Shown in pieces: positions 7,003 through 47,400 of a stretch of 64,000 nt of DNA. The position numbers and the translations under genes were made by a program. The DNA lies in the NCBI GenBank assembly GCA_000934665.2, contig KZ537981.1:1-64000 (forward strand), written 5' to 3'. The stretch comes from Catajapyx aquilonaris (lineage: Eukaryota). Numbering within the stretch: the first letter of the stretch is position 1; each line of letters starts with the position of its first letter. The notes under the pieces are model-generated. The model saw only the letters and a program-made list of their open reading frames with translations. It was not told the DNA's origin and did no database searches.

Positions 7003-10000
7003 TTAGAAGAGATCTTTCTCTTTCTTCAGATTGGTCTGCCGCCACGTCGGCAGGCTGTAGAATGCATTCTTGGTAAATCCCAGCACCTCCTGGAATTAGA
7101 CACAATTAGAGTTCGTGTGGCGATGGACATAAATGAGGAAATTACCTGAAATTCGTCGTCGCTTAAGTACGACTCAAGTCGGGCTGGATCAACTCCTTCG
7201 GGAAGTGGCTTCTCCTGCAGTTCCACAAAAGTGAAGGCCTTCCGGTTCATGCGGGCCATCACCTCAGCTACCGGAACCGGCTCCTGGCTCAGTCCGTCAT
7301 CATCTTCATCCACAACAGGAAACCAGGTTGGAAACAGGTTCGTGAACTCCTCCGGTTCTGCCCCGGCGCACACCAGCATTGGGGCCAATCCATTGCTGGC
7401 GTCATCTCCGGCATAGTCGAGTGCGGTTCCAAGGGCACACCGCCTCTCCGAGTCCCACCTGGGCCCCTCCTCGCTTCCCGCAGCCCTCTGCCACACCCAA
7501 ATCCGGTCCACTCCGTCCACCAGGAAGAGTGCGGGCTGGTTGGCCTCCATCAGGTCATCTTGAGTGAATGGGAATGGGGTTGGATGCCCAGGGGCGAACC
7601 AGGGGCAACGGACCTCTCTGGCCACAAACGAACCGGACCAAGAGGACATGTGGAACAGCCGCGATGTCTGAAGCAACGGGCCTAGAGAGCTCCTCTCCAA
7701 GGGCGAGTCTTCGCTGATTCCTGCGAAACAATACCAATTACGGCCCTGCAATTAGCAGAGAGCAGGCGACATTTACCTCTGAGGAATTCCAGCGACTCCT
7801 CTCCTTGTTCCTCCTCCCGCACAGCCTTCCCTTTGCCCAGATTGCGTTTGGCCACTGCTGCAGCCAGCTCCCTCACATGCTGTGGCGACCTGGACCCGTG
7901 CCACACGATGATGGAATCCTCTGTGGTCATCACGAATGATGTCCTGTCCCGCAAGTGTGACCGTTCTGCCTCTACCTCCACCAGGACTGTCTCCTCTTTC
8001 AAATCGCCTCGAAGGTAGTACAGACGGCTGCTTCTAACCTGCGATTGTCTGCCCAGTTCGATCACCATTTTGCCTCCAAAGAGCCTGACAAAAACAGGAG
8101 GCTCCCTTCCTTCTTCCACCCGCACCTAGAAAAATAATATTATGCGTCAAGTACAATGCAATTACAATTGACGAGCAGTAACCAACCTGAGGACCTTTCT
8201 CCTCATCCAACTCGACCGTGATGAGGGCCGCAGCTCCTTGGGAGGTGATGGAGGATTGGCGTCCTTGCCAGAAGTAGTACGCACACCTGTCACGACCAGT
8301 TACAGAGTGGCGTGACTGCTGGCCTGAGAGGTCGCGACCTGTGAAGACGCAAATGTCCAAAATGAATTACCTTGCTTCGAGCTGAAAGGTGAATGAGCCC
8401 AAGAAAATTCAGTTCCAACACACTGAACTTACCAAACCTCTCTCCCAATGGGCTGGCTGCTTTCAGATAAGACAACAATATCACACGTGTCCATCAGTCG
8501 AATTTACATAACCGACCCTTGCAAGACACAACCTAGATCATGCGAATGAAACTGACCTGTCAGAGTGACCCTGTAGAGCCATCTAACAATGTAGGTGTCT
8601 GTAGAGCAGAACTTGCCCCACTCCTCCCTGGGGACCCGCTCCTTCCTGTTCTCCGAGGCCTTCCACACCGCCTTGTCCAGCGTGGCCAGCACGTGTCTCC
8701 TCTCCTGGCCCTCCCCTTCCCCTTCCCCTCCCCTCCCGATCTGCTCTCCTTCCAGTTCCAGTCCGCCTTCCCATTCCGGCTCCTGGGACATCTTGGACAC
8801 ATCGCACGGCCTCAGCTCCTCTGTGGCCTCCTGCCGCTGCTGCTGCTGCTTCGCCGACTTCCCGCCGACCATTATGACCCTGGTGAAGTCCGGCCAGTCC
8901 TGGAACTTCTCCTGGAACAGAACCGACTCCATGTTCTGGTTCACCTTCCCGAAGTAGGCCCACACTGGACGGGAATCAGCCTTCGATGGGGACTCCTTTC
9001 CAATTGGGTTTGAATCACAGCCACTGTAGTCATATCTGCAATACAAATATCATGTAACAAGTAGTTACGACGTCAAACTTGGTGAACTCACCCTTTATCC
9101 CACTTTTTCTTGGCGAGCTTCAGTCCTTTCCGCCTGAGATCAAGAGGTGCTTTCTTGCCAACCCAGCAGTACATCTCTGACCCAAAGTCAAATACGATGA
9201 CCTTTTCTGGGTCAAGTGTCTGGTACCTCAGAAGGCATCCTTCCAGATACTCGACTGGCTCCAGCTTCCACTCTCCGCCTTCCTCCACAGCCTCGTACAC
9301 GATGTTGGTCGAGACAATCGCACTCTCGTATGACTCGTCTTCCACTGGACTCTCCGCACCTTTAAGCACACGTTACATTCTAGACACTCAGATTAAATAT
9401 TCAAAAGCAACTCACCTTTCTGGCATCCATCCTCGCCTCCGAGGGCCTCCCAGAATGCGGCCACATGTCTCCTGTCCGCCTCTTTGCCCTCCTCGATTGT
9501 GGTGACGCCACCGGAACCTTTATACCCGAGCTGCTTCTTCTGGCAAACGATCTGAGCCACCTCGGATGCCCGGCTCCTCTCAATAACGTTCGAGTATTCC
9601 CCAATCCAAATGTACACCCTGGCTGGGGTCACCAGAATGTAGGCGTCACCACTGTTGATCGATGACGCCACCGGTTGGACCATTCTGGTCTGAACATAGC
9701 GGCGACCTTTGACCAACAATAGCCGCATGGGGGGACCATCATTGTCGGATGACCCCTCGGTGGAGACGCCATGGCTACGAAGGCTGACCCGAGTGAAGTC
9801 CTCCCGAGAAGCCAGGCCAGCCAAAGCTTCAACGGCCAGGTTTGACGACTTGGCAACTGCGGAACATGAATAATTACCTGATTGCCAAATAATGAGCATG
9901 GCATGACTTACGTTGCTTCACTTGCATGTTCCTTAGCTCACGCTCGGCTACTCCGGTGGAAACCTCCTCGTAATGCGCCTGGAGGTCAGTCCTTGAAGCA

Positions 10001-13000
10001 AGAGCCCGGAGAGGGTTGCGAGATGAGGCTGCCCTCCGCTTTTGAACCTGCACGCTCCTTCGCTGGACCAACCTGCAAACATTACAAAGTTTGGGAGAAT
10101 AAAGAACCATCAGGCAAAATCTGAAAAACGTACAATTCACTCCTTTCAGTCACGACATGTTCAAAAGCATCCTCCTTGACCTCCATTCGCTCCTCTCTGA
10201 GCCCCGCAACGCTGCTGAAGAATTGACCGAACTCCTCGTCGAAAATACTCGGCACCGCAACCACCTTTCTTGGCGACGGCTTATCCACTACGACTGTCTG
10301 AGTAACATTGACAGGTTCGTCAGGTGCCGACACGCTCCTCCTGGGCCTTGGTGGCAAGGGAAGCTCGTCCGGGCGTCCCATCACAATAGAGGAAGTGATC
10401 CCCCGGGTGCGGACTGGCTTCGGCTTCGTAACATAGTCCGCCGCAGTCACCAGACCCGCCTCCACCATCTTCCCAGCAACGGTGAAGCGGCTGGCATCTG
10501 AAACGGATCGCCTCTTGCGCCATTCCTCGCTGGCAACCTCGAGCTGGTTTTTGAGGTCCGCTATGTTCTTCTTATTCTCCGGTGACTACAAAAAAAAGCC
10601 AGAAAATCAGTTGATGAAGCAAAGGTTCTTTCGCTCAAAGCATGAACCTTCCCAGCTGAATTTTCATAATTCGTACACAAGCTGCTGTTCTCAATTGGCT
10701 AGTACAGTACATACCCAGTACTTGATTAGATATGCAACAATGCATGCAACCCCGAGGGCACCGAGAGCCCATACTTCCGACCACCCTGGCATCTCGGATC
10801 TAACAGGACGCGGCCACTTCCTAGCCCGCACATCCTGTGGTTGCGGAACATAAAAGCCACAAAGTCAACACTCACCTCTGGCGACACTTCATTGTCGTCT
10901 TTGTTATCAGCGGTGCCAATTGACGACAGCCTCTGGTTCCAGCTCTCCTTGTGCTTGACCAACGCGGCCAACCTGCGTGTGGATTTGGGATTAGTACACC
11001 GCACTTAGCTGCTTGTATAACCGCAATTACCTGTCTCGAATGCTTCCACCTTCGCTGGCAGCTTCAACCTCCATATCTGTCAGGGGCTGCGTCATGCTTC
11101 GTCGTGACAGCCTCCTCTCGACCTGCCTCGGCGACAAGCTGGCCCTTAAAGGAAGCTGCTCCGTGCCGGATGATCCTTGTGCAGCATAATTCAAGTCCTC
11201 GACGCCGCCTCCTCTGGACGACACCTGCTCTTGGCTCCAACTGAAGAGAACACAGAAGACGTTAGCGCAAAGACACTACAATTTCTCTGCACGTTCAACC
11301 CCGCAGTAATACCCAAATCCAGACAAGCTAATTTGGAAGGTGCATATGGAAATGAGCTCAGCCTCTGTCTGGCCAAGGCCAAGTATTTTTCCTGCCTCTC
11401 AGTTTACATAATCAACCTTTTTTTTTTTAGTTGCTACAACTCAGCCCAACTGCCATGCTGTCAATAGATGACTGCAAAATCTCTCCTCAGAACCGCGAGA
11501 CACTTTCGCATTTTTGGGAAAGCGACAAGTAGTCCGCAAAGTACACACAAGTGGGTTGTCACCCTGCGGTGGCGACGCATTTTTTAAAACGCAAAAAAGG
11601 AGGCCCAAATCCAAAGTTATCTCTTGGCAAAGGTCCAAAAACGAGGGAGGTCCATCCGAGGATATAATTGCAAGGCCCCAAAAAATAAAATAAAAAAGTG
11701 CGCGACACTTTAAAACTAAGTACTCAATAATATCTTGTTACACTTGCTCGAATTAAACCTGTAGACTGTGTGGTGTGCAACCTTCAGTGTCCGATTTGTC
11801 GTGCCAAAGAATCTTGCAAATATTTTCGCACGCTTTCACCCCAAACGTAGGATTCACGGATTAATCCCCCGCTTCATTGCACAAACCGCCGAGAATTTAC
11901 CAACACTTGTCAGATCCACGTAAATTGCTTTAAAAAAATTGGCGTGCCAATTCTGCCCATAGGTAACGTTTAAAATCATGCTAAATCCACAATTGAATTA
12001 CAATAGTGGGGAAAAAATTATCAGATTTTTGCCCTTGTGTGATATTATTGTAAGTGAAGATTACCCCTTTTATCATTTAATCTACAAGTTCCGCATTTTT
12101 TGCACTGAATTGGCGTGCCAAATCTAGCCGTAAGTAGTTGCAAACTCGCTTAAAATCCGCCTAAATCCACTGAAACAATAACAGTGGTGAAAAGGCCATC
12201 ATATTTATAACCCATTTTGCAAGTAAAGACTATTCGTTTTTATTATGCGACTGACAAGTTCCGCACAAAAATTTTTGCACTGAATTGGCGTGCCAATTCT
12301 GCATTTTTTCGCAAATTCGCCTATAAATCAGTTACAACAGTCACATTTATGAACGCATTGTAAGTGAATATTTCGACTTGTCAAGTTCCGCTAAAAATAT
12401 TTTTGCACCAAACACATTTCCGTACCGGTACCGCACGCACACGTGTGCATTGAAAGTCCTTCACCCGAATCAAAAGGTATAAACTGACAGGTGTCAACCG
12501 TAGCAGCATTTTAGAGGTCGTTCACACTGCGTCCATATACAAACTAGACCCGATTCACACCCGGTCCACTTACGATCACAATTTCGGCACAGTTTGAGCT
12601 GTTCACCTGCTTTTTTTTTTAGCGATGAGTCACCCAGTGGTGCAAGCAACACACAGGTGTTTTCCAGTGCACACAGCACAGCACCGAGCAAAGTCGACCC
12701 CGATACTCCTCAACCGAGAGGCTCAACTAACTGTACTTTTTTTTTTTCGGCCTATGAGTGTGTGTGTGTTGGAGAGCGTGTGGTCGTAATAATAATAAAA
12801 GGGGGCCCTCTCCGACTGCTGCTGGGTTGTGTACAAGAGCCAGCTGGACTGGCTTCTCCCCCCCAGCACAACAAACCCCCCCCCAAACACCACCCACCCG
12901 AGTCCAGCAGAGCGTGGGAGTTAGTCCTTCCAAGTGACGTCAGCACAAAATTGATGGTCCATTAAGAAGAAGTACAGCACCTTCCATATAATACAGGTCA

Positions 13001-16000
13001 TGCCCAATTACACCTCATTTTCGCACCTTTCCCATTCAACATCTTGTCATGTTAATTAGTCTAGGGATTACACCCCTTTTGATTGCACGACCCTGGCACG
13101 TCACTTTGCCTCTAAAACGGTACTCGCGAATTATTTTTTTTTGCATTGTTAGGTACTGTCCTACTCTCCTGAAATAATATAGAGTTGGCTATAGGCGTGA
13201 CTCTGTCCATGTTGGGGAGGAGCCTATTCGCCAACAGGTAAGTGGCACATCGCACTACGTTCACAACTGGCAAGGCGATTGTTGCTTCTAGCCAGTTGCT
13301 AGAGTGAGCCCAATCGGTATACATTAATCGTGCAAATAATTCCGTTTCGCAATTAATGATCCTCATCCTGTTTTTTGCACACCGCAAATATAGCTCGGGC
13401 TCTTCCTTCCTTCTCTCAACAGTCAGTCTGGGGGCAACGCACGTATATTTGGCCCACCCTTTAAAAAAAAAAAACAGGGGAGTAATTATACTCACTCTGA
13501 AGACAAGACAGCAATAAATACATTTCGCGAGCCAACTTGGGTGGCTTATTTTTGGGGGGGAAAGGTTTTACAGCCCCCCCTATCTCTGGCTAAGGTGAAA
13601 GGGTCATGCACCCGTTATATCCTCATATATTTGGCGAGCAGAAAAAAAATTCGCCAATTTTAAACATTACCAAGTTGCTGAAGCCTGTTGCAACACTGCA
13701 CCAAATCAATCACTGTCACATTGAGGCTGGGTTGCATAAACGATGGTAAATCATTAAGTAATTACTCCTCATCAACTCGCATCTAATGAGGCAACTCATA
13801 CACCAATTGCATATTTGCAACCTGTGTTAAGAATTGGTACATTGTATGCTCAATGTTCACTCAAGTGCAAACGCAACTTACCTGGTACTGCCAGTGAATG
13901 ATTCACAGTCTGTCGCACTAATCACAATCTAATCAGGTCGTCTCAAAGGATCGAAAACGGCAAACGCAACAAAAAAGATATGGCTTAATTGAGGCTACGC
14001 AAACCGCACCGATACGTGCTGTACACACACTCACATCCCGTGCACATGCAAACACTGAAAGGCCGAAGCACCCCAGTGGAGTAATTGGCCTGATCTTTAA
14101 GTGGGCTCCAAGGCTGTGCCACAGCAGGCAAGAATGGTCCTCAAGAATCAAGGAAGTGTGTTACAGGGGGGGAGTAACCCTTTCTCTCTAATAAACACAG
14201 CCTACACGTACGCACACCCGGCACGCACACACGAAAAAGGACGATTTGCAGATGAACGGAGAGCACTTTGGGCAGGCAGTTTCCTCCTGGCGAAAGACGC
14301 ATGCGGATGCTTAGAGAGTGTTGCCAGTTATGCACGGCTTGAAAGCGTGGCACACATCTGGCCGTATTCTTTAAGTGGCCACACAACAGGTGGCACACAT
14401 CACACATGGTGCCCGCAATTCAAAAGTACGAGCAGGCAATTAACAACCGGTAACGATGCTATATGCCAAAAATAATCAAGCATGCTCCAATTCTGCTGAA
14501 ATTGTCAGTACCAAGCAGTGCAACAGAAGAAAAGAAAAGAAAATTCCACACCTGAGGATCAGTCACTTTCAACATCCAGCCATTGCCTTTTCTTACACAT
14601 ACGAGTAATCAACACCCTGCTGAATTAATTTGAATTCGTTCGGCTCTTTCAAGTGCGAAGGCCACGTCTGGAATTCGACAGCTCGCTTCAGCCAAATTGG
14701 CAATATGCGATGCTTTGAGAGCTAATTTTAGACTTCAAGTCCACAAAGTTGGCCAAATGAATACATAACGATTTTGGATCCTTGCCTTGCACCCATTGCA
14801 CACTGTTTATGGCCAAATATGTAAACACACCTGGCAACATGCAGATAACTCACCCGACTTCCTTCCTCCGCATGGATGCCGTGAGCCGCCTGGCAACACC
14901 CTCGTTTCGGATTATCCTCCTGACTTCCCTTCCACCGGAGGAGGATCCCGTGTCCTGGTCATCCATCTTTTTGGGAGGTTGGCCCGCCTTATAGTCCCGG
15001 AATGCGTCTAGGATAGCGTCATCTGGGCCGGAGAGTGACCCGGAGGAGGAGCCACCAGAATCAGAGATGGGCGCTGGAAACTCGGCCGACTCCGGCTTCA
15101 GGATGGACCTCAGCTCTGGTAGTTCTGGGCTGCGACGATTCCGCAGGGCACTCCGGAGCAGCCCCGGACTTTTATTTGGTTCAGGGTCGGACCTGACCAC
15201 TAATATGGACTTCACCTCGTTCTTATCTGCGTCTACCGAAATAATTAGTGATCATCCACATCTACGCAGCAATGAAAACACAACAAAGTGGATCTTACCA
15301 TCACACCCATTGACCTTTGCTTCCTCGTTGACCTGACCCAGTGATGGCCGCCTTCTGGCACCGTCAAGTGGCTTTGGATCCAGCCGATGTTCCATTATCT
15401 TTTGGTTGAACAGCTTCACCCTCTCGGAAAGTGGAAGTGCTGACGGCTCTTCACCGTCACCGGCTCCGAATGACAGCCTTGCTGCAACCTGCACCTCCTC
15501 CGTTGTCACAGGCTGGGTTGCAAAACGTGCCGACCTGTCCCTCCTCTTCGGGCGTGTACCGGATGCCGCTGCCGAGTTCTCCTGCTCCAAACGTAAGAAG
15601 AGCGAGGCTCTACGCATAACACTGGACTGGCATACAGACTCCACCTCCTCCACAGCCTCTTCCACAGTTGGTTCCGGCTCCAGATCACTCTGCATGGCAC
15701 GCCTCATCCTCAGGATTGAACCCAACTCGCCGTCAACCTCAGCTTGCGTCTTCAGTGATGAGCGCCTCTTCAATATGCTGTGAAGTTGTGGCTCAGGTGC
15801 TGACCCGCTTCTGGCCCTGTGACCCTCTTCCTTCAGTATTGGCTTTGATATCGGAGACGGCGAGTTTGAAGGAGGCAGAGGCTCCTCCTCCGAAGCCCGC
15901 TTCTTCAGAATGGGCTTTGGCAGGTCGAAATCCGCCGCATCTTCGCTGCTGCTCTTCTTCTTGAGTATTGGCCTCCCTTGTGACTGGTGTCCGTTTGTGA

Positions 16001-19000
16001 CCGGATTCGGCTGGTTGAGTTCATCCCTCAGAGTGTCCGTCTTCCGCTTCAGTATGGAGTGTGGCTCCTCCAACGAAGCCCTCCGCTGCTTAAGAATGGG
16101 CTCAGGTGATCCTATCCCTGCTCGACTATTTCCAGAGAAGCCGTCCTCATCCAGACTGACTCGCTTCTTCAGGATCCCGCCCACTCCCGGGGACATTGCG
16201 TTGCAGACAGCTGCCATGTCGGCCTGAAATAAAATCAGCAGTAGACTTCAATGGCTTTCCACCTAATCCACTAATACCACCCTGTACTTGGCATTCACCA
16301 AATATATTTTGCAATGCATGTCACTGTTAAATGTGTGCATGACTGGAGCTAATCAATCGAGAAACAACCTTCAAATAAAGAATGAGATTCAGTCTAAACG
16401 CAGCACAACTTTAAACTGATTTTTTTTTTAACAATTCTGTTTACGGTTGATCCCCGATGAACTAATTGACGCAGCTACAGCCAATGCAAAGTGGCCTTTG
16501 CTACTTTCTAAAATGGGGTCAGCGGCGTGAAACCTGTCTATAATAAACAATCATGTACGTTCCCACCGCAACCTGTTATTTAAGTATGAAACATTGCCCC
16601 CCGTGGCCTTTTCTGTAACGATGCACATTAGAAGGTTTCGCAATGCTGACCTTTTCACAATCCGCTAACCAAATTATGACACGCGCCATTTCACAAATAT
16701 CCTGCCCAGAGGGATTAACCATATGTTCTGAGACACACTGTCATAACATGTTCAGTATGCTTGAACTATTACGATGGGACCATTTGACCAATCAACTCCC
16801 CCCACACTAATTGAAGGTCAAGCATTGCACTGTGCTAATGAGACCTCCTGCGATACAACGCATTAATGATTCACATTAGCAAGGAGCTACTTTACGTACT
16901 ATGTAAATACGATGGTTACAGTTGCTGGATATATATCCCACTTGCACTTGCACCACGCACATGCGTCTCTAAACAGAGAGGCGGGCCACCTGGGACTGCA
17001 GCAGCCGACGCTCTATCCCGCGACCTTGACTTTGACACCCCTGACCCTGACCTCGCTCCCCCAGCGTCATTACCTGCTCGGGTGAAGGTCGCCTCTTGAG
17101 GATCGATGGCGGGACGGACGACGACGCCACCGACGCCGCACAGGCGCTCCCGACGCCCGGCTCGTTCCTGGTCTTGAGGATGCTCGACTGGGCCCTGGGC
17201 AGCACCAGGGGCTGATGGTGCCTCTGACTGCTGGCCCAGCAGGCCTCCTCTGAGGATTCAGTCAGTCTCTGGACGCGGTCAGCCGTGTCCCTAGCCACCG
17301 CCGACAGCGTCTCCAGGCGTCCAGCCAGCTCCTCAGACGACGACCCAGTCGCCCTCGCTGCAAACAACGTGTCAGTCACACAACCCGCCCACTCAAAACT
17401 AAAGCCAAATTGAACAATACGAGCCCAAGTCCGAGCGAGGAAATGGGCCACATGATTCAATGGGACCAACCTGGCGAGAGGGTCTTGGCATCCTGCGTGG
17501 GCGATGACGACAGAAGCGAGAGTGACCTTGACCTCAGGACGGGGGGTATCTCCGGTCGAGGGCTGACCAGCGACCCGCCCCTGTCCCGCCCGCCCCCGGG
17601 TCGAGGAGGGGTCGGACTGGTGCTGGTGCTGACCACATCCGGACCAGCACTCTGAGAGACACCGCTGCTGACCTCAGTCGACGACCCTGACCTCTTCCGC
17701 CTCTGCCGTCGCCAGTTGTCATCTGAAACAAGTCACGAAACACCGGCGTCAACAACCACTGACCGCAGAAGAAGGGCGGTAACCGCGAAAAGAGATCCAC
17801 ATCTCTTCTCCGCAAAGTTCCGTGACCGTCGCGCAAACCTTTTTCGCATTAAAAAAAAATAACATTAATAAAAAAAAATCCGCACGTCACCCAACTTCCG
17901 GTCATGTCGACAAGTTTGTCGACCCTACCACGAATTTACCATCACGACATCTGAAGTGTTCCTATCGCTATCAATACCTCCGGGTGGAAAATGAAAGGTT
18001 CATTCACACGGTACAAAAACTGGACCGGGTCCGAACCCAGTTCACTTTGGTTGGCTGGGGAAGTCGCCAACCCAACTGCTCTGGGCAAATTCTTAAAGGC
18101 ATGTGTTTACGCCCTCGCGATTTGAGCCTCGGTCGCACGACCAGATGCTTTGCGACCGACAAAAAATCCGCACGACCAGACGATTTGCGATCGACAAAGA
18201 GTCGCACGACCAGGAGCCATATACTCATCAAGGTCACTCGCAATCGACAAAGTCGATTGACGTCAAAATGACGTCGCCAATGCCGACCAGGGCAGGGGGA
18301 GGAGAATTGGCGACGTCATTTTGACGTCAATCGACTTTGTCGATTGCGAGTGACCTTGATGAGTATATGGCTCCAGATGCTTTGCGACCGACAAAAAAAT
18401 CCGCACGACCAGACGATTTGCGATCGACAAAAAGTCGCACGACTTTCGACCGACAAAAATCGCACGACCAGACGCTTTGCGGCCTACAAAAAGTCGTGCG
18501 ACTTTGCGACCGACTTTTCCTGCTGGTTGCTAAGAGTCTGGTCGTGCGACCGAGCGTAAACAGGCTTTTACGAAACCAAATCGCGCACAACGACCCAACG
18601 ACGAACGACCTTCGTGTGAACCCAGCGACACTGTCCATATACTGGTTTCCGCGGTACCTCCTCTGGCCAAATACGCGACGCAGCTCCTGCTCCGTCTCAT
18701 ATGTCTCCTAGCACGAAACACTGAGGTCCAACAGGTGTCGGCCACATCCATCCCAAGACTTCCAAAAAAAAAAGAAAAAGGAAGCGACAACATTTCCTGC
18801 TGCCCGCAACCAAGGTGTGACCAAGACCAGCAGTGTCCAATTACATCTCACCTGCATGCTAATCGCCCCTCCCCCACCACCGCGATGCATGTAAATTACT
18901 TGCGCACTCACCGGAAATGCACGACCATCCTTTGCCCATGGCTGGTCACGGTCAGGTCGCCGACAAATGCCAGCAAGTAGCCGCATCTTTATTTACTAAA

Positions 19001-22000
19001 AACGTGGTGACTATACTTCGTATGCGTCATGTGAACGGTACTTGTGACGTGTCCTATCGATAAAGTCATGTTTCTCACACATGTCCATGGCTTATTGTTT
19101 ACCCCAGCAACCAGTGATTTTGCTGCTTCCCTGACCTCCGACCCTATGCCCAAAGCAGCCTTCCAATCGGACCAATCAGAGCCAGGCTGCTGTCTTACGT
19201 CTGTCTCCGGAATGCAGCTGCACAGGAAGAGTCAGGAAGGCAGCCTTGGGGGCCCCGTTTCTTTCACTTTTTTTTGTGTGTGTGCGCCCTTCCTCACACC
19301 CTGTACAGTGGGAAGGACACCCTCTTCTTTCTCACAACACAAATCTGCCCAGTTTTGTACCCATTTACTGCGCGATTAGCTATCGTGCTGGGCATTAAAT
19401 GGCGTGGCGCCACAATCCGATGGCTGCAAAAGAGCGAATCGACATTTCCCCTCCGTATGACCGCTTCTATACTTGGTACCGCAAACGTCATCCGGTCTGA
19501 CACCCCCCCGGTACTTTACGAGCAAACAATAAATCTACTGACCAATTATTGCTTCACCGAGTCCGATGACTCCGATGGCAGCTGCTTCGACCTCCTCTTC
19601 ATTCATGGACCGGTTGAGATTGGACTTCCTCTTCCCGCTCTTGTCCTTCTCCTGCTTCTCCTTCCTCCTGACCACGTCGCCGTCTCCAACTGCTGGAAGG
19701 AGGCGTCCAGAGGAACCGTTGCTGTCCGTGGTCGCACGTCGTCGCACGTTGGACGCTGCGACGATCTCAACAGGCGGCGAAGATCGCTTCCCAATCCTGG
19801 CCGGGTCTGTGGATAAAGGCATTGTTACGCCCTCACGATTTGAGCCTCGGTCGCACGACCAGATGCTTTGCGACCGACAAAAATCGCACAACCAGACGCT
19901 TTGCGACCGACCAAAAATCCGCACGACCACACGCTTTGCGATCAACAAAAAGTCGCACGACTTTGCGACCGACAAAAAATCCGCACGGCCAGACGCTTTG
20001 CGATCGACAAAAAGTCGCACGACTGTGCGACCGACAAAAAATCCGCACGACCAGACGCTTTGCGATCGACAAAAAGTCGCGCGACTTTGCGACCGACAAA
20101 AAATCCGCACGGCCAGACGCTTTGCGACTGACACAAAGTCGTACGACTTTGCGACCGACTTTTTGCCTCGGTCGATGGTCGTGCGACCGAGGCTTAAATC
20201 GTAAGCAGCATCTTATACCTGGTAGATGAGCGCCATTTCTGCCGGATGCAACTGTGGACGATGCGGCGGCGGCTGCTCGTAGACGAGACGTCCTTGTGCT
20301 TCGGACACCGGACATCTCCTCAGAGCCGGAGCTGTCTCTTGTTATGTACCTGCGACGGGGCTTACCATCGCTCGTTGTCGTCGTTGCCAAATTCTCATTC
20401 GTTGGACCAGCCGTCTGAGCCTTACCATCTCCATTCGTAGCCACCTAAATGTTCCAAAAATGTATACGGGGTCAACGTCTCTATACGTCTACGAGCATTT
20501 ACCTGAGCTTGGCCTGAACTCCTGGTAGCTGTAGGACCATCTTTGTGTCGATGCCTGTGGTGCCTTAGATCCCTGGAGCTGGACAGTTCCTCGCTGGACG
20601 ACCACTCTCCATGGATCGCCGCAAACTGACGCCGCCTCTCCTCCTGCCAACAATGATCACATATTGTCCATCAAGCTGCATTCAGATAATTTCGGACGAG
20701 GCAACCAACATTTCTTGACAAATGCTGTCAGTTGACCACTCCAATAATTAAATCGCGTGCTTTGTGATTGACGGCGTGTCATTTAGTGCGCCCCATTGTG
20801 TCGTAATATGTACTACAACTATTAATAGGAAATCGATTGTTACAAAGTGTCACTGACCTTGTACCGCCGTATCCTTTCCACCCTCTCCCTGTCAGAGCCC
20901 GAGGTGTCTGCGGAGGCGGAGTTGGCCTCGGGGCGACGCAGGGGCGGAGAGCAATCGTCCCTCCGGGTCGAGTTGCGCCGGGCTGACGAACCCGGGCTGC
21001 CCCGGGGAGCCCTGGGGTCACTGGAAAGGGGGTCAAGCCACATTGAACCCAAATTTCCACCAAGCTGATTAAATCCAGATTTAACTTAAGCCGTGCAAAG
21101 GGTGACAACCTCCTTTTTTTTACTTTAAAAAAAACAAGTGGGCGCCTGCATAATTAAACTTTCCCTTGATTTACATTTTCGCGGGGAAAAAACACTGCAC
21201 CTTCGTAAATATTGCATGGCAGCCACCTCCGCCAAAATCCCGGATTTAGCAAAAAGTGCTTCCTCTGCCTTGCAAGCCATCATCAACTTCTCCCCCGATT
21301 ATTTTTAGTGTACACAGGGTGGTCCAAGGATGCAGCCGACAAGCCACGAATATTGTTGACATGTCCCCCCACGACTAATTTCTAGGCCCTCCGCAACCAG
21401 CATGGTGTACTTCAACATTATCCGTATATGTACTGTCAACAAGCAAGAAGATTGTCGTACTAATACTTTTCACGTGTTGGCCCATGCACAAATATTTTTT
21501 GAACCGGAAACTTGCAGACCTTTCTGCTTATTAATAAGTCGTCCTTCGATGCACACGTGCTCAACATTTTGTAAAAACAAACGGCCGTCCTAATAGGGGG
21601 GGGGTGTAAACACCTCGCTTTTGATTGCACGAAGGCTGCTCACACTTCTGTTAAAGGGCCCCCATTGTTTCTAATCAGTGGCCTCAGGACTCGAAATATC
21701 CGGGTTGGCGATAATGAAAGTGCCGACCCCCTCAAAAATTCCAGCAATTAGTCGAGCGAGCAATGGCCAGTGCGACATGCAATAACAAACAATATTTGTA
21801 TAGCATTTTTGGTCACTCACCTCAGCCTGCCCATGGCGATGACGGGGACCTCCTGAGGCAGCACACCAGCTTCACATGATTCCGGCTGAGTGTCCCTACC
21901 TGCAACAAACAAGCACACACACACACAAAAAGAAATATAGTAATCACCGGGGAGGGTGCATGCGTTGTGTCTACTTTAGTACAGCCCCCTTTTCCTCAAG

Positions 22001-22454
22001 CATGCGCGCTCTTTCAAGAACCTCTCAAACACACACACAAAACATGCAGTGTACAGACGTCATACACTCTGTGGGGGCCATAATATCCGCTCCAATTCCG
22101 GTCCCCCCCAAAAAATTTTAAAGCCGCACGTCACACTTTCATGCTTTTATTGCAACGGTTGAACGGACCTGCATCGGCAACACGGAATCACGCACCGACT
22201 TAAACGCCTTCTTCACCCTCAAAGAGAGTCGTGGTTTGAAAACCGCAAGTACCGCGAAGAGAACGTCACGTGTGTATTGCCAACCGTCATGGGAAAAACG
22301 CTCGTGTTGGTTACAGTGCGCATTCCCATGTATAAGGGTATGGCCTGTACTGCAAGGTATGCACAATGCACCTGAACTCGCGGTGACGTTCGCGCCAACA
22401 ATTGAACCTACCTGTCACTACTTGACTGCAGCTCCTCATGACCGCACTTGACAT
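7003..22454 (-). CDS. Svil: Supervillin (gelsolin/villin family, C-terminal villin headpiece), proximal-start isoform, ~2031 aa
   Basis: Phase-consistent exons: 22412-22454, 21821-21899, 20858-21020, 20503-20643, 20219-20444, 19543-19806, 19199-19217, 18658-18707, 17471-17722, 17074-17357, 15299-16223, 14854-15232, 11031-11240, 10876-10972, 10134-10585, 9912-10072, 9416-9856, 9092-9359, 8557-9035, 8187-8338, 7777-8125, 7146-7720, 7003-7089 (6096 nt, divisible by 3). Supervillin hallmarks: [70 protein letters not shown] and the headpiece [25 protein letters not shown]...[16 protein letters not shown]. The small 5' exons are less certain than the gelsolin-core exons. Confidence 0.93.
11790..12410. 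repeat. ~170-bp tandem repeat (about 3 degenerate units) in a Svil intron
   Basis: aattggcgtgccaa recurs at ~11937, 12108 and 12283; caagttccgc recurs at ~12086, 12256 and 12382. Confidence 0.8.
18093..18570. mobile_element. MITE/foldback element with internal tandem repeats (copy 1), interrupted by a nested MITE
   Basis: The left end taaaggcat..gtttacgccctc.cgatttgagcctcggtcgcacgacca is shared with the copy at 19814, and the right end tggtcgtgcgaccgag is its inverse. Internal units are tttgcga(c/t)cgacaaaaa.tc(c)gcacgac. Confidence 0.8.
18214..18373. mobile_element. 160-bp palindromic MITE, 68-bp perfect TIRs, 3-bp TSD (CAG); PIF/Harbinger-like
   Basis: 18214-18281 is the exact reverse complement of 18306-18373, and cag flanks both sides. 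Removing the element plus one cag restores the host repeat cgcacgaccagatgctttg. Confidence 0.9.
19814..20215. mobile_element. MITE/foldback element with internal tandem repeats (copy 2)
   Basis: TIRs acgatttgagcctcggtcgcacgacca (~19836-19861) and tggtcgtgcgaccgaggcttaaatcgt (20176-20202) enclose about 10 alternating 26-35-bp units. Confidence 0.85.
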
Positions 22455-25017
22455 GTGCGACGACTCCTCCTGAGACTAGTCCACCAACACAGAGAGTGAA
22501 CACACCTGTGTGGCATGTATCCTTCCTACCTACGTTCCTTCCAAACTAAGTGTGGGAGGAGAAAAAAGAGAATGGAGAGGAGGAGGGGGTAGTACTACAC
22601 CCAGCAACTGCAGCAAGGTTGTCTCTCTTTTTTTCTCTCTCTTTACCTATATAACACCCCCCTCACTGGAACCGTAAGTATTTCAGGTCCTCCCCCAAAA
22701 AATCGACCTCACACTCAAACAGGACCGAACTGCAACACCGACTAGTCACTACTATGACTAAACCGCAGATAAAAAAAATAGGCGGCACATGATTATCAGA
22801 AAGCTCGGGGGAAGTGGGGGGGAGATGATGATAGCATAAAAAAAAAAACAAAGGGCCTTGGGTGACCAAATGCGACCGCATGCCAAGGAATGCAGAAACA
22901 CCCTGTAGGCAACAGCTGCTGGTTTATTTAGGTCGTGCATTGGGACTCGGTGAAACTCTGCTTGGAATTTGTGGTCGCAATTTCAGAAAAAAGGAGGAAT
23001 AAAAACACCCGAAATACACAAGCTGCCCAGGCGGAAAAACACGTCAACAAATTTACGCCAAATTTTGCGCCATACTGGTGTACTATCCGAGACTTTAACT
23101 TATGGCCTTTTCCAGGTTTCAAAATTTAACATTCGTAACAATAGTGCCATTTTCTGGTATATGAACATATGATGGCCCACCAACTACGCTGTTTAATTAT
23201 TAATTTAACCTCAGGATGACCTATCACACCTACACGAGTCGTTGCCATGCGTTGGTCCTACCTTTATTATGTTCGCACAAAGAAACTGAAGGATGCGACG
23301 TTTTTATTTAAGAGCCTGACTTGTTGAGTCACCTTACGAAAAATTAAGCATTCGCATTTTCTCAAGGTCGGCAGGTGGCCTAAAAAAATGTCCGTTTTTC
23401 GCGCGCGAAAAAAAATAAATTAAGAATTGCAGTACCGTATATGCCTGAGATCCACACCACATCCGAGCTTGAACCGCCACCTGTCGTCTCATGCTCTCAC
23501 TAATCTATACTGTAAAAAACACTGTATACTTTATGTACTGCACAAGATGCATGTAGTAGTAGTACAGTATTTTATTCATGTTGGTTGCGGTTACACACAA
23601 AAAAATTTCAAGTGAGAAATTGTATTTCGACATACTTTCCATGCGAATGTAAAATGTAAGCACTACATACATGCCAATGTTGTGAGATAATTTATTCTGG
23701 CAACTTAAACCGCAACTTGAATTAAGAGAGGTCGTCTTAACTTACCGTCTCTTTACCTGCAAACCCTATTCAAGAAGCTTCTCTGGTTATGTCAGGTTGT
23801 GCATTGTGAATACCTACGCATATAATCAAAGAGGTTACTTTATTTGCTTTTATACAAGCGACGCACTCCTGGCTTATAATGTACTAGCTTCCTACAACAT
23901 GTAAGTGTACGTTCAGTATTGGTCCACTGCATGTCTACGCCTACCACGCACCATGCTCCTCACCACCCATACACGTGCACACACATGCACGCTACTGTAG
24001 ACATCTACTCATTCAGTCCCCAACGACACAGCGGCAGCCACAGTTCAGAGAAAAAAAGAGAAGCCCCCTGACACAACCCTGCGATTTCAAACATGTACTT
24101 GTATTAGCAGGATATTTTGTAGTAGTCATATTACCTGGTGAATGGAACCACACAGGGGCAGGGAGGGGAGGATGAGGGCGGCGGCCTTACAAGCAACCTA
24201 AAACAGAAGCAAGACGAGTCAGGGTTAATGCAGCGCACGGACCGTCACAAGGGGGGGGCGGGCTAAAACAACTGGAAGCTCAACTATTCCCATGTTACAA
24301 AATGCTTCATTTCCGTGAAATGCGCAGGTGGCAACTATGTTATCATAACACGGGTAATATACGACAGCGATTGTACACTTCCAAATGTAGAGCAGGTACA
24401 GTACTATCGTAAGACTTGCCCTGCATTCTTGTGTGTGCGCTTCTGATAACACAGTGGATACTAGTTGACATCAACCCATTCCACGGAAACGGCTACAGCT
24501 ACTCTCCCACTTGTGCAGTCGCACTTGAAAGGTCCATACATTTTTTTAAAACCCTCGTTAGTAATTAGACATCTGCAGCTGGGTTAGTGCAGGGGTCAAC
24601 ACTTGGCACACTGTGAAAATTAACATCTATCCCTGACCTGGTAGCCATGGTAGCTAATCAAAAGTGTATGCAGCACAGGATGGTCTGTTTCGTCTATCAA
24701 CACATGATCCCGGAAAACAGGCATGACTTAAAGTACTACGAGACAAATATTCTTTTCACAAGGCATATTATGCGGGTGAGGAAAAAAGGGAGCAAGTTAG
24801 CCGAGAGGCACTCTTTATTTGCACTATTTCACTGGGATGCGTTTGGGGGTTTCCAACAAACAATCAGCAAATAAATCCATGCACACATAGGCCGCTAAAT
24901 CATGGCATGTTGTCGAACTGAGCACCAGATTGTGGGAAAACTACGCTTTGGAAAATAGAAACCCTGCCATGATCTAGCGACTCACTTCAGCAAAGAGGAC
25001 CTGAAAAGTATAGTGTT

Positions 25018-27833
25018 TTAGGACAGCATGATGGCAACAGCGGCCGCAGCAGCGGCCAGGACGGCAGCCAGTGCGGCAAGACAGTCGAGGCCGGCCAGCT
25101 GGTGCAGGCATGCGAAGATGTAGCATGCGGCCAGCACACTCCCAGGGCCCCACTTACTTGACTCCGAGGAAGCCCCGAACGCCACCGGAATCGGAGGCGC
25201 TGCTGGAGGAGGAGCCTTGGGAGCTGGAGGCACCGACGTCTCCCTTGCAAGCGCATCCAAAAGCGCATCCAACTGTGCCTCCTCGCTTGCCTGAACGCAC
25301 TGTGGCATCTGTGCTCGTGGCCAGCTGCTGACCTCGGCCTGAACCGTCTGGGCCACTTGGGCCCTGGGCCAGTGGTTAATCCTCACCTCAGTTAAGGTCT
25401 CGGTACTTGTTCCACCATCCAGTAAATGTCGGGAAACCCTGGGAGTTGATGCATCGGTGTCCCACATGAGGTCTGAGTAGCTCCGGGCACGTTCGGAATT
25501 GCGGTTTCGAGCTGGCGGCAGAGGAGGTGCCTGTCTCCCAGCACGTGGAACCAAACTTGCAAGATTGGCTGACAGTGACCTGACCGCACGTCGCTTTACA
25601 GACGCCTCTGGAAAGTCCTTCCGAAGGTTTCGTACTGCGAGATCATCAGCGACAATGTCTGGCCGCTTCAGAGCACTAAGCATAGGCCTTCTTGTCACCT
25701 TTGGGTGTGCCCGGAGGTAGTCTGTACTAGAAGATGGCGATAAAGGTCTCAAAGGTATGCCAAATGGAGGCTGCGAATCTGGAATTAGTCCGCTGTTTGC
25801 CCTCCTTATGTTTCGAAGAGCAACATCATCTGCAGTTGGATCGGCCTCACCAGGTTCTACTGGTTCAGAAGCAGGCGGAAGCAGCAGAAAGCTTCCAGCA
25901 CGGCCAATGACATTTCTGGGATCATTCACCCCGTTTGGAATGTCTTTTACTAAACGGCGCCGAGCCATATCATCTGCCAGTGGATCAGGCATGCAAGACC
26001 GGCGGCATGGTGGGGCCCTTGTCCTCGGTGCCTTCGGAGACCCGACTGAGCTTGGTGGTGAAGATGATGTTGATCCGCGCCTCTGGTGGGCTGTTGGCAA
26101 ATCCCTTCGTTCGGCACGATCCAACAAATCTTCATCGCTCAATCGTAAACTTTTGTAAATGGCCTCCAGCTCATTGAGTGCTTCCTCTAGATTGGCGTTA
26201 CGTTGCTGCCTTTCTTCCAGGGTTGGGAAGGGTGGAAACTTAGGCAGCGGTGGTGGCGGCGGTGGAGCTGGCCGCCACCTGGCTGTGGCTTCCCTCTGGC
26301 GCCAAAAGTCAGTGGGTCCCCCATTTGAAGGCCGAACCGAGTTGATGGTGCCGTAGTGTCCACGAACCAGCACATTCTGATAGTCGTGATGGGAATCAAC
26401 TGCCATGGAGTTTGGTCGTGGGTCAGGGTAGAGAACCACGCGACGCTGGGGGTCACGGGGAGGCGGAGGCGGTGGACTCTGCTTTGCATGGCTGAAAAAC
26501 AGAACAACATGTAAACTGCTAGTTTGTCTCAAACAATAAGAATAAAAAGCCATGAACAGCTTCAATGACATGACTTTAAAATATTAGTAATTTTTCACTT
26601 CATCATGCATCAAGAATATTTTAACTACAACACATCCAATAGCATGGTTAGCAGCCAATTCAAAATATTCTGGACATGTGTCAAAAAAATGCTTTGTAGT
26701 TTTCTTCAAAAAATTTACGTACACTGACATTTTCCAACATTAAATTTTTCACATTATGGCAACCATGGAGCAAAGCTACATTAGTAAAATTAATAAATTT
26801 AGTAATGCAAAATGCCTGCAATGGAATTCCAAGAATCTGACCTTCTGTGAAAGAATCGTGGTTGCGACTGAGCCTGCATCTGTATATGCCTGCTAGGCTG
26901 ATGATGAATGGGCTGTGCGTATGTGGGGAGCTGCGGATGAGACTGCGACTGGTTCACAAGGTGCCTGAGTGCAAACACGGGACTCCTCATTTGTGCTGTG
27001 AGTGGTTGCTGAGGCGATACGACCACCGAGGAGGCCCACCTGGTGCCCCACGGATGAGGCACAGGTGGAGGAGGGTGCAACGGAGGAGGCAGGCAGTCAC
27101 GACGGGGCTGCTGCTGAACCCTGCGTCCACTGTCCAAGCTGGACCTCCGGTAAGTCCCAATGTTGTTACCAGACGTGACTGACGACTCCTCCTCTTCTGA
27201 GCTACTGTTCTTCAACTTCTCCCTCCTCGCTTCAGCCCTTGCCTTCCTGGCATCCCGCCTCTCTTTACGGAGCAACACCTCGCTTGACCCGCTGGTTGAC
27301 CCACCACCTCGATATCGGCTCGAGTCGTGGCTGGAGTGTGACAACCGATCTATGCTGCCACTGAGAGAGTCTCGACTTCCACTTCGACCACGGGCCTTAT
27401 TGTTGTTGGGAATGGTTATCTGCCTGCTCCTGTGCTGTCCGTTGACAACTGGGAGGCCATCCTGGGCAGGGATCAGTCTGCCTTCATCGGCACTCAGAAC
27501 ATAGTTAAGCTCAGGCGGAGTTGGTTCAATCTCAAGCGTCACCCGTACATGACCTTCGGGCAACATTGGCTGTTGGGACTGCTGCTGTTGCTTCTTCTGC
27601 TGCCTTCTGGCCCTCCGTAACGCCAGAAACCCTCCCTGTTGCCTTGTCGTGTCTTTCTCCACCTCTTCCGAACTGCTTCCACTCCCTTTGCTCTTCTTTC
27701 GCCTGAAGAGGTTGCCCAGTGTCCATTTGCGCTCCTTCTTCCGCTTGGTCTGACCACCTCCGGCGGGCTTTCCATTGCTCATGGCCATGTTTGTGTTGCG
27801 GTGCTGCTCCTTCTGCGGACCACCAGTAGCCAT
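25018..27833 (-). CDS. Distal 5' coding exons of the supervillin locus (26842-27881 and 25018/25158-26491): either the N-terminus of a ~2790-aa Svil isoform or a ~820-aa protein ending in a hydrophobic tail
   Basis: Two long ORFs are joined by a phase-2 intron (AG|gtcaga...tttttcag|C). Conserved-looking motifs include KKERKWTLGNLFRRKK, NLEEALNELEAIYKSLRLSDEDLLDRAERRDLP and three ADDxAxR repeats. An internal donor A|gtaagt at 25157 is phase-compatible with Svil exon 21821-21899. The start codon (MATGG at 27833) is tentative because an acceptor lies at 27882. Confidence 0.8.
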
Positions 27834-44454: not shown

Positions 44455-47400
44455 ATGGCGGCCCGGACCCTCCTCCTCACCACACTCCTCCTCGTATCAG
44501 CTGCTGCTGCCACCCCAGGTAAATCCCCTTCCCCCAAAATAATAATTCTTTATCGATTGATTATCCCGCCCTTTCCGCACGATGCCATTGGACCCAAGCA
44601 ATTCCGCACGTAGGCCATCCCTATACTACAGTAGTATGTACTACATACCCTCTGTAGTACATCAACCAGAAAATATGTAGGTTACACCCGGCCACGTAGC
44701 AGCAAGGAATACGCGTTACATAAGCTGAATTGGCTCACAAAAATTTGCACGCCAAAAAATATTGTTTTGCGAACGGGAGGAAAATAATTCGCGATTTTAC
44801 ATAAGTGTGTTGCGCGTATCAAAAAAATATTTCGCCATGTTAGTAAAATTTGAATTCGCGAATTTTTCGCAAAAAATACGTTGGGTCGAGTACCAATTGA
44901 TAATTAGCATTAATATTGCTTGTTGTTGGGTCAAAATTTTCGCGGAGTTGAAATATTTTTTTAAAGGTGATAACTTGAATCCGCGAATATTTTTTGCAAG
45001 AAATATTTCGCGATGTTAATAATTTGAATTCGCGAATTTTGTCGCAAAAAATACCTTGCAATTATAGTGTCATACCAATTGATAATTAGCATTAATATGT
45101 GTTGTTGGGTCAAAATTTTCGCGGAGTTGAAATATTATTTAAAAAGGTGATAACTTGAATCCGCGAATATTTTTTTTGCAAAAAAGTGATCATACCAAAG
45201 AAAACCATAATTTGCATTATTCACAAATAGTCGTAATTGTGAGTCGTGGCTAAATTTTCGCGACGTATTATGTGCAATAATTTTTGAATTCGCGAATATG
45301 CTCGCAAAAAAATCCGTGTTCCAGTTATGCAAGCCATACCAAACGATAAATGTTCAATACTTACAAAATATTGTGTGTGGAAAGTATGAAAATTTTCTCC
45401 GCGTTGAAATTAATTCGCAAATATTCGTGTAATGCGGGTCATGCTAAATATTTCGATAATTTGCAATATTTACAACCATGTCATGACACCAGCAATTAGT
45501 GCTAATTACAATTACAATCGCGAGCAACATTTGCCAAATTTCCCAATCATCACGCTCGTTTGATAGAGAGTTTTGCAAAAAAAAGAAATTGAGCAAAACG
45601 TTATGCCAAGTTCCGTTAAGGTCACCTTCAAGAGATTCTTTTCCTGCTTTAAAAAAAATTGTTTCGCATGCTAAAAAAAAATAATTAAAAGTGCACTGAC
45701 CAGTCGTTAGTAGACCATGCATGCCCTTCTCCCCGTGTATTGTTACCGTTCGCATGTAAGTACTTTCTCTAATTATTGTTTGCAAAGAGTGCACCAAGCG
45801 TGTACCCTACTTATAGCCAAGGCTATAGACACTGCATTATTTTTCACATGTGGAGGGCATATCTGTTCAATTATAATTTTTCATTAATTATACGGTGTAA
45901 TTAGTGTGTACGTATGGACGGTGTACATTTTTTATTGGGTACGATCATCATGGGGAATTTTTCTTAGCAAACTTGTAGCTCCCACACTTTTAACGTAACG
46001 AAATGACGTACAAGACGCTACTTAAAAAAGTAAATAATGCGTTTGTAAAGCGCGATAAGACTTTTGAGTAAAATGATAAGGCGATAGTCGTCAAAAGGCC
46101 TTGAACATGCTCAATGATAGTTGGAGGATTTACAGTAATGTTCCGCTTGAAATGATTGAAGCCCACATTTGTACAACATGTGCGCAACCAGACCTGGTTT
46201 AAAAAAGTCAGGTACGCTATGATTCATTGCAGGTGCGATAAACAATTGTACCTAGCAGATGTATAAATTCAGGTGTAAGTACAAGTACAAGCGCTTTAAA
46301 AAGAAGTACAACTATTCGCAAGGTCATAAGCCGCTGTTATTATTTCCGTTTTTGCATGATAAGCGGTTATGATCATGTGTCAGCAAAATGTCAGTAACAT
46401 CAAGCGGAGTTGACATAAATTTTACTACCGCATTGGTTAACGAAGGAAGCGATTTGACTTCCGTACAATTTGCAAGCACCGCAGTTATTACTTTTTCTCC
46501 ATAACACCGCAACGTACACACCAACCTATATTTCTCATGCACTGTACGGCCTGACATTGCCATGTAACGAATTGCTTGTAATAACAATGGGCTATTTGTT
46601 CACGGGTAATCCCAACCAGTTTTCACAGAATTTACCCCCTTCAAGGGCACCAATTAAGTCGTATATTTTTTTTACCTGTCCCTGACTTGGGCATATTGTG
46701 ACTTCCCCGCTTTACGACACATGCTATATGATTCTTTGTCTCCTAAATTGGGTCCTAAAAGGTGGACATTGGTTTCCCATAGTGTCAATCTTCTAGAGGT
46801 TCTAGGGGGAAGGTTTAAAAATAGGCCAATGTTGGAGGTGGAAGAATATTTTGTCGAGGTCTGCTTGGGGGAGACTTATTCCTGGACACGGATAAGGGGA
46901 GCCAAAATGCTCCGTGGAACGAACCATGAAAAAAAATTAAGTGCGTCAAGCCATGTCTGGATTGGAAATTGGCAAGGTTAACCTCATCGACATATTAATT
47001 GATCTCTGTCGTCATTGAGTTGTTAACGAGCACATTTTGCTTCCAGATTTCCTAGTTGCGATCCAGAACCGGCTGGAATTGGGCCGAATAGATCAATCTT
47101 CCAGCGACCAACTCAAGCCCGACCATCTTCCTGGCCAAATAGTGGCACTGGAGTGGGATCCGATCAACTCGGAACAAGTCTTCTTCAGTGCCAGCGATGG
47201 TCTACGTGCCTCAATCCATGCCTTTAACCTCACGGACAATTCCAGCAGTCTCGTCATATCTCGTAAGTTGCAAGTTTGCTAATTATTTGCAGGTCAATAC
47301 GGTGTACTTTTTTGCAGAGAACTACACGGGAGCTGCTGAGGGACTTGCGTACGATCCATTTGATGGGACGCTGTACTGGACGGAAAGTGTTAACAGGACG

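Follow-up and report, generated by a model that had tools for sequence, protein, structure and literature searches.

In a 64,000-nucleotide stretch of the genome of Catajapyx aquilonaris (assembly GCA_000934665.2, contig KZ537981.1, positions 1 to 64,000; hereafter the window), we analyzed the supervillin (Svil) locus, which lies on the minus strand and carries two large coding exons, A and B, some 5 kb upstream of where the supervillin-like exons begin. Our analysis makes it probable that this gene produces two proteins, a short membrane-anchored one and a long actin-binding one, depending on whether a splice donor inside exon B is used or read through.

According to the model that we propose, a single Svil transcription unit beginning with the ATG exon (27833-26842) would give rise to two proteins sharing a 775-residue N-terminus, the choice being one between splicing and intronic cleavage and polyadenylation at a composite terminal exon. 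If the donor at 25158 is left unused and the transcript is cleaved and polyadenylated within the 3.26-kb intron, translation would run on for 46 extra codons to a TAA at 25018. The resulting short form would be a protein of 821 amino acids, otherwise hydrophilic and largely disordered, whose last 21 residues would make up a membrane helix at the C-terminus, after a conserved helix bearing Cys, His, Gln and Asp; such a protein would be tail-anchored, with its bulk facing the cytosol. If 25158 is instead spliced to 21899, the tail, the stop codon and the polyadenylation (poly(A)) signals would be removed, and the same N-terminus would lead on to the N-terminal motifs of supervillin, its gelsolin repeats and its villin headpiece, giving an actin-binding long form of about 2,800 amino acids. 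We infer the poly(A) site, the membrane insertion, the topology and the function of the shared module; as to the last, our guess is that the module binds one partner, which the short form would fix to the membrane and the long form would tie to actin. Lacking the actin-binding part, the short form anchors the N-terminal module, not the gelsolin/headpiece core of supervillin.

A first-pass annotation of this DNA had proposed a splicing-versus-intronic-polyadenylation switch acting on one N-terminus. The core of that proposal is supported by the tail, by fused gene models and isoform pairs in other arthropods, by the donor and by the reading frame; the poly(A) site that it assigned did not gain the same support. 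The architecture is not peculiar to the Catajapyx aquilonaris locus, but is arthropod-wide and already contained in automated gene models.

Splice donor, reading frame and read-through tail

The open reading frame (ORF) 26491-25018, the donor at 25158/25157 and the AATAAA at 24814-24819 were all found in the sequence where the first-pass annotation had placed them. The donor, CAA/GTAAGT (the slash marks the exon end), agrees with the consensus MAG/GTRAGT at eight of nine positions. It is the sole site scoring at least 8 in the 2,466 nucleotides of coding exons A and B, and it equals the best of the 11 RNA-confirmed donors of the window, which score 6-8. Its phase (phase 1) does suit the Svil acceptor at 21900/21899, as had been claimed, and the split codon A/GT encodes Ser whether it is completed by read-through or by joining to exon C. 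From the ATG at 27833 the frame is open via exons A, B, C, D, E and F into exon G, as far as 19537, across the proposed 25158>21899 junction, which we consider likely to be used in Catajapyx aquilonaris.

Read-through past 25158 yields SKWGPGSVLAACYIFACLHQLAGLDCLAALAAVLAAAAAAVAIMLS followed by a stop, that is, the expected 46 codons with a hydrophobic C-terminus and a TAA at 25020-25018. The AATAAA on the minus strand at 24814-24819 starts 199 nucleotides past this TAA. Since there are 128 copies of AATAAA in the window, the presence of this one is of little weight by itself; eight minus-strand copies lie in the 3,258-nucleotide intron. The earlier suggestion that this signal marks the 3' end is sustained as to its place, but an RNA contig reads 203 nucleotides beyond it, so that it is neither the sole 3' end nor a certain one.

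To what extent the tail is shared with other arthropods was examined with 31 homologous matches of 269-858 amino acids, 274 matches of 859-2450 amino acids (120 listed) and, with no length limits, 258 matches (150 listed) in a library of 1.84 billion representative sequences. A C-terminus was called hydrophobic if an 18-residue window with a mean hydropathy of at least 2.0 fell within the last 30 residues, which was the case in 159 of 291 homologues. The tail proved to be conserved: 155 distinct homologous C-termini, from insects and crustaceans, share the pattern A-C-Y..A-C.HQLAGLD, with the residue of the window present in 115 of 145 (A), 125 of 150 (C), 117 of 137 (Y), 106 of 153 (A), 83 of 144 (Q) and 130 of 155 (D) sequences at the respective columns. 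In 112 of the 155 tails, exactly 20 uncharged residues separate the last charged residue from the end of the protein. Judged from these alignments, conservation of the tail as a C-terminus of this protein family goes beyond what chance would produce.

The composition of the 821-residue product is consistent with a tail anchor. On the Kyte-Doolittle scale its best 19-residue window (2.62) covers residues 802-820, and the best value elsewhere is 0.63. The first 40 residues have a mean hydropathy of -1.59, and no window outside the tail reaches 1.6. Thus only the very C-terminus is hydrophobic, and hydropathy gives no sign of an N-terminal signal peptide or of another membrane segment. An AlphaFold model, based on a 34-row alignment, is mostly of low confidence (mean predicted local distance difference test, pLDDT, 57.8), as expected of a disordered protein, and ends in two helices, 449-466 and 470-489 of its 490 residues, with pLDDT values of 83-96 (90-96 in the last helix).

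These two helices leave room for another arrangement, in which the switch is real and the tail is a hairpin or in-plane anchor, for instance on a lipid droplet or in one membrane leaflet, with its cysteines possibly acylated. Two helices (18 and 20 residues) separated by an invariant Asp, with a break at L-D-C in the model, would suit such an anchor, as would the hydrophobic character of the first helix, which also holds the best conserved residues (the C, Y, Q and D columns given above), and the Ala-rich last helix of the window copy. We nevertheless regard a hairpin as unlikely: the 20 uncharged residues that follow the Asp in most tails have the length of a spanning helix and leave no lumenal tail, and the first helix, at 16-18 residues with a His and a Gln, is short for a second span.

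Upstream of the tail, exon A encodes a hydrophilic N-terminus bearing KKERKWTLGNLFRRKK, an N-terminal motif common to the aphid, wasp and mayfly homologues, and matched no Pfam family in our scan. The module encoded by exon B contains the helix LEEALNELEAIYKSLRLSDEDLLDRAERRD, three DDxAxRxL(R)KD repeats, PPFGIP and QLDALLDAL, with invariant columns in the homologue alignments, and AlphaFold models the conserved motifs as helices with good confidence. Pfam assigned no family to the module in any of 14 module proteins, and a search of the ESM Atlas returned for it only matches named 'hypothetical protein', with a best score of 0.84.

Chelicerate homologues end differently. Five proteins from ticks and a scorpion (P0006-P0008, P0060 and P0112) end in QLDALL(A/T)SL, about 20 residues and V(R)I(P/T)A, with no hydrophobic tail, and those of spiders stop earlier. 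It may be that chelicerates have no anchor, or that a last exon is missing from their gene models.

Isoform classes, RNA contigs and alternative readings

In the gene models of mayfly, beetles, sawfly, flies and crayfish, the module is joined to gelsolin repeats and a headpiece. All 29 matches of 3559-5000 amino acids contain the module; the precomputed domains include both Gelsolin and VHP in 27 of them, VHP only in P0153 and neither in P0164. A Pfam scan of 10 long homologues found Gelsolin and VHP in six (P0182, P0191, P0201, P0216, P0252 and P0153) and neither in P0184, P0225, P0255 and P0202. Names given to fused forms by their sources include supervillin isoform X5 (Neocloeon triangulifer, 2821 amino acids), supervillin-like X2 (Cylas formicarius), supervillin X1-X6 (Onthophagus taurus) and Svil X4 (Drosophila takahashii), and a horseshoe-crab gene model combines the module with a supervillin N-terminal motif. 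Tail forms are found as well: the 'Svil isoform X4' of Bemisia tabaci terminates in the tail, and Logan contigs of transcript size encode tail forms, for example 1807 amino acids on 6.3 kb and 1993 amino acids on 7.2 kb. Other products with the module are filed as 'serine-rich adhesin for platelets', 'serine/arginine repetitive matrix protein 2' or 'uncharacterized', so that the same products carry unrelated names across many genomes.

Fused and tail-bearing forms of close relatives part at a single point. In Daphnia, the fused P0148 and the tail-bearing P0129 have 99.5% identity across 864 amino acids and split after SSPG, the fused form continuing with RKTS..ERIARYKEERRKQ and the tail form with EVTP.., its tail following 227 residues later. 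In decapods, the crayfish P0153 (fused) separates after SSEG or SNSEG from five tail forms (P0055, P0074, P0067, P0184 and P0215) and a Penaeus model; the fused form continues with ERDD and the tail forms with K or N (KQ, KE, NK and NW in four of them), and the Penaeus model stops 12 residues on. In mayflies, P0182 (fused) and the tail forms P0043 and P0046, which are 84% and 81% identical to it, split after FQG, where the fused form reads HRSP and the tail forms KQCA and KQCE. A Gly (Ser in the window) followed by K, E or N is the product of reading through a phase-1 junction with GTAAG, GTGAG or GTAAY.

The donor itself was looked for in the DNA of 10 metagenome loci encoding relatives, five of which reach the tail: L001, L010 and the closely related L002-L004, whose tails are termite-like. 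The site AAG/GTGAGG, in phase 1, is present in all five (L001, L002, L003, L004 and L010), at 57, 66, 66, 66 and 65 codons ahead of the tail stop. It is the sole site scoring at least 8 in four of the five ORFs, which span 657-2054 codons; L004 has another, at its 5' end. The residues flanking the conserved donor differ between lineages, and it is difficult to see why a donor would be kept within the tail-form coding sequence if the splice site were not used. In the 10 kb of L010 that were examined we found no supervillin motif. Details vary by lineage; the lepidopteran tail, for one, seems to have an exon of its own following KKG.

A more tentative reading, to which we give less than even credence, takes the 40-residue tail (A-C-Y..A-C.H-Q-L-A-G-L-D and then exactly 20 uncharged residues) to be an undescribed membrane-anchoring module found throughout arthropods. 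The switch would then be ancient, because its donor within the ORF is common to insects, branchiopods and decapods, and it would allow one promoter to divide a single scaffold between a membrane-fixed form and an actin-binding supervillin. The short form would act as a membrane receptor for the long form, or as its antagonist, through the shared N-terminal helices.

RNA evidence for the window comes from one public run, X1, which is not on record as RNA and is represented by contigs only, showing neither RNA ends nor levels. Twenty of its contigs fit the window, uncovered parts (such as 16304-17631 and 22280-23607) being uninformative. All 11 listed joints skip minus-strand segments with GT..AG ends, and for this reason we take the contigs to stem from spliced RNA. 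The confirmed joints are A-B (26842/26491), the series C-D-E-F-G (21821/21020, 20858/20643, 20503/20444 and 20219/19806) and six more downstream. Exon B is covered by contigs at 25155-25791 and 25853-26491.

Two of the contigs meet at the donor. Record 4 (554 letters, on 25174-24611) takes in the last 17 letters of exon B, the donor, the complete tail coding sequence with its stop and the 3' untranslated region (UTR) past the AATAAA; under a rule that asks for 31 letters on each side, it spans the stop and the AATAAA but does not span the donor. Record 5 (663 letters) matches 25791-25155, and its final 26 letters depart from the read-through sequence at 25154-25129, a segment in which record 4 shows the X1 read-through sequence to be that of the window. 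The two records part three bases past the exon end, and these three bases, GTA, begin both the intron (GTAAGT) and exon C (GTAGGG). The exon C side of the C-D joint is 76 letters long (21896-21821), three short of the 79 nucleotides of this exon, and the missing ones are again GTA. The branch in record 5 and the 76-letter side form the pattern expected of a 25158>21899 junction, which is suggestive only. As to the RNA check at the donor that the first-pass annotation had suggested, X1 contains read-through RNA and a contig that branches there, and 25158>21899 is missing from the listed joints.

The X1 sequence also differs from the window in places, with a 10-nucleotide deletion at 24723 in the 3' UTR and clusters of substitutions at 24305-24436 and 25792-26035; one cluster is seen at about half depth (4.07 of 9.82), which would fit two alleles.

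Several observations weigh against a switch of the kind proposed here. The listed X1 joints lack 25158>21899, two joints having been filtered out at a TG repeat (21901-21941) directly next to the acceptor, and no single X1 contig reaches 31 letters on each side of the donor, the exon side of record 4 having 17. The type of the run is judged from its 11 listed joints, and the RNA of record 4 runs through the proposed AATAAA. A contig at about 24300-24473 shares its depth figure with the exon C-D contig and there is a good donor, CAG/GTAATA, at 24135, so that 24135 may be spliced to exon C in addition to 25158 or in its place; the several ATGs within the segment 24473-24135 suit a 3' UTR better than a separate 5' exon of supervillin. 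Beyond the window, every fused protein named by its source is an automated gene model, with no full-length cDNA among them, and the homologues from ticks, scorpion and spiders among the matches listed end without the tail. Finally, the Ala-rich terminal helix is of moderate hydrophobicity.

Some of these points would also fit two neighbouring genes, with an upstream tail-anchored gene ending at about 24.8-23.8 kb, a supervillin gene starting at the exon C ATG (21834), an unused GTAAGT and, in other species, fused models that gene predictors produced by reading through or merging. Exons A and B do form a complete ORF with a start, a stop and a downstream AATAAA; many homologues of 650-2,500 amino acids stand alone and end in the tail; some Penaeus entries name the module gene separately from supervillin; and B>C is not among the listed joints. 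Exon C also holds an in-frame, Kozak-like GCCATGG (ATG 21834-21832) just ahead of the conserved supervillin motif ERxxRYKxERR, which, in the model that we favour too, probably marks the start of a shorter supervillin made from another promoter. Two separate genes are nonetheless improbable in our view, given that fused models are found repeatedly, in mayfly, beetles, sawfly, crayfish, many flies and partly also in horseshoe crab, that the isoform pairs diverge at exactly one point, and that a phase-1 consensus donor upstream of the tail is kept in three further lineages despite flanking residues that are not conserved. At the locus itself, the frame is open across 25158>21899 and record 5 departs from read-through exactly at the donor. 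That the read-through RNA is a retained intron or unprocessed precursor without a meaningful tail-bearing protein is scarcely credible, even if the sole run consists of contigs and one of them passes the first AATAAA, as a useless intron start would not keep a 46-residue frame conserved in 155 distinct insect and crustacean sequences, and tail forms are encoded on the transcript-sized Logan contigs.

Layout of the locus and its neighbours

The features of the locus are listed in Table 1. Exons D-G encode KRKSNLNRS and other motifs common to the fused proteins of crayfish, mayfly and Daphnia; we did not find a donor for exon G. The exons of the supervillin body are collinear with supervillin proteins of 2821-4645 amino acids from mayfly, beetles, sawfly and crayfish (tblastn; P0153, P0154, P0182, P0201 and P0191). 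As the first-pass annotation had stated for its proposed message, the locus ends in gelsolin repeats and a headpiece: Pfam Gelsolin matches at 9396-9917 with 24.9 bits (cut-off 21), with a second, sub-cut-off match at 7685-8125 (17.4 bits), and VHP matches at 7006-7095 with 50.8 bits (cut-off 27), directly followed by the TAA at 7003-7005.

Table 1. Features of the supervillin locus, in window coordinates
Feature	Positions	Strand	Details and evidence
Exon A (first coding exon)	26842..27833	-	992 nucleotides; ATG 27833-27831; phase 2 end; read from the sequence
A-B intron	26492..26841	-	350 nucleotides, GT..AG; junction 26842/26491 bridged by a spliced contig
Exon B, common part	25158..26491	-	1334 nucleotides; phase 1 end; acceptor tttttcag/C at 26492/26491
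Alternative 5' splice site, CAA/GTAAGT	25152..25160	-	Last exon base 25158, first intron base 25157
Read-through extension	25021..25157	-	With base 25158, 46 codons: SKWGPGSV, then LAACYIFACLHQLAGLD (25134-25084) and CLAALAAVLAAAAAAVAIMLS (25083-25021)
Stop codon TAA, short isoform	25018..25020	-	Read from the sequence
3' UTR, at least to 24611	24611..25017	-	RNA contig record 4; contains AATAAA 24814-24819
Next AATAAA, candidate distal poly(A) signal	23839..23844	-	Inside the alternative intron; contig depth in bins 23608-24935
Alternative intron	21900..25157	-	3258 nucleotides; GT 25157-25156, AG 21901-21900; holds tail codons, stop and poly(A) signals; probably removed in the long form
Exon C	21821..21899	-	79 nucleotides; open in the exon B frame; donor side shown by joint 21821/21020
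Supervillin N-terminal exons: D 21020-20858, E 20643-20503, F 20444-20219, G from 19806 downwards	19537..21020	-	Contig joints, GT..AG ends, open frame
Supervillin body	7003..16247	-	PILKK-repeat exon 16247-15299; gelsolin-repeat exons; headpiece 7095-7006; stop TAA 7005-7003

About 3.5 kb past the 3' end of supervillin, the segment 2040-3448 holds partial extra copies of gelsolin-region DNA. Positions 2493-3448 are a copy of 8791-9813 in direct orientation, with 85-91% identity, and 2040-2493 are an inverted copy of 9358-9813 (92%), the two together making a palindrome-like pair; they could be pseudogene fragments or an assembly artefact. Between 17900 and 20220 there are long repetitive open frames on both strands, which point to a tandem repeat array in and around the supervillin F-G intron (19807-20218); a repeat also lies at 18762-18789.

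Elsewhere in the window, we identified a gene for strumpellin, a subunit of the WASH complex, on the minus strand at 50637-54272 (Pfam Strumpellin, 522 and 369 bits on two exons), and a gene for eIF3 subunit I, also on the minus strand, at 57650-58630 (Pfam EIF3I, 202.7 bits; cut-off 200). A dense group of short AATAAA-containing repeats, with about 40 minus-strand matches, lies at 53577-53924, in or beside the strumpellin gene. On the plus strand, opposite to these neighbours, positions 47143-48589 carry exons of a membrane protein with low-density lipoprotein (LDL)-receptor class B (YWTD) repeats and an epidermal growth factor (EGF) domain, followed by a hydrophobic stretch.

Relation to known systems

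Vertebrate supervillin is a peripheral protein of the membrane skeleton, tightly associated with membranes and present in many isoforms, which binds actin and myosin; how it is tied to membranes is still debated. The Svil long form resembles vertebrate supervillin/archvillin (SVIL) in that gelsolin repeats and a headpiece come after an extended N-terminus that is for the most part disordered, and the motif ER(I/V)xRYKxERRRQ, found near the N-terminus of the vertebrate protein, is seen here too. To our knowledge, no transmembrane or tail-anchored isoform of vertebrate supervillin is known, and a literature search on supervillin/Svil, including the fly CG33232, found no description of a membrane-anchored isoform. 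The fly homologue CG33232 is described in a 2013 report as being without the N-terminal sequences of vertebrate supervillin (PMC3842989). The RefSeq models of arthropod Svil genes are like our model in that both products are present, as the tail form of Bemisia and the fused forms of Neocloeon, Onthophagus and Drosophila takahashii, and unlike it in that they are predictions without comment, under inconsistent names, in which the anchor, the conserved donor and the switch go unremarked.

If the switch operates as proposed, arthropods keep an integral-membrane isoform that shares some 800-1,600 N-terminal residues with a long actin-binding isoform. The locus would then offer a genetic handle, in Drosophila or Daphnia, on how a scaffold is placed at membranes, and a clean natural case in which the decision between splicing and polyadenylation adds a membrane anchor rather than removing one.

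In the immunoglobulin mu heavy chain, a choice between splicing and intronic polyadenylation at a composite terminal exon determines whether a membrane anchor is present. Two reports describe a similar decision for Flt1 and sFlt1, where a 5' splice site competes with a downstream poly(A) site over the anchor (PMC2926593; PMC7554721). The form made by intronic polyadenylation loses the anchor and is secreted in both immunoglobulin mu and Flt1, whereas in Svil this form would gain the anchor and the spliced form would be a soluble cytoskeletal protein. A further comparison is offered by SLMAP, which associates with membranes and the cytoskeleton and in which alternative RNA processing determines the C-terminal tail anchor (PMC2712456). 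SLMAP exchanges one tail anchor for another, whereas the alternative to the anchor in Svil would be about 2,000 residues of actin-binding protein; judged by Pfam alone, which has no family for the module, SLMAP and the Svil module have no sequence relation. By analogy with these systems, the mechanism at the Svil locus would be of the known splicing-versus-intronic-polyadenylation kind with its sign reversed, and the anchored supervillin isoform itself would be one for which our literature search found no description.

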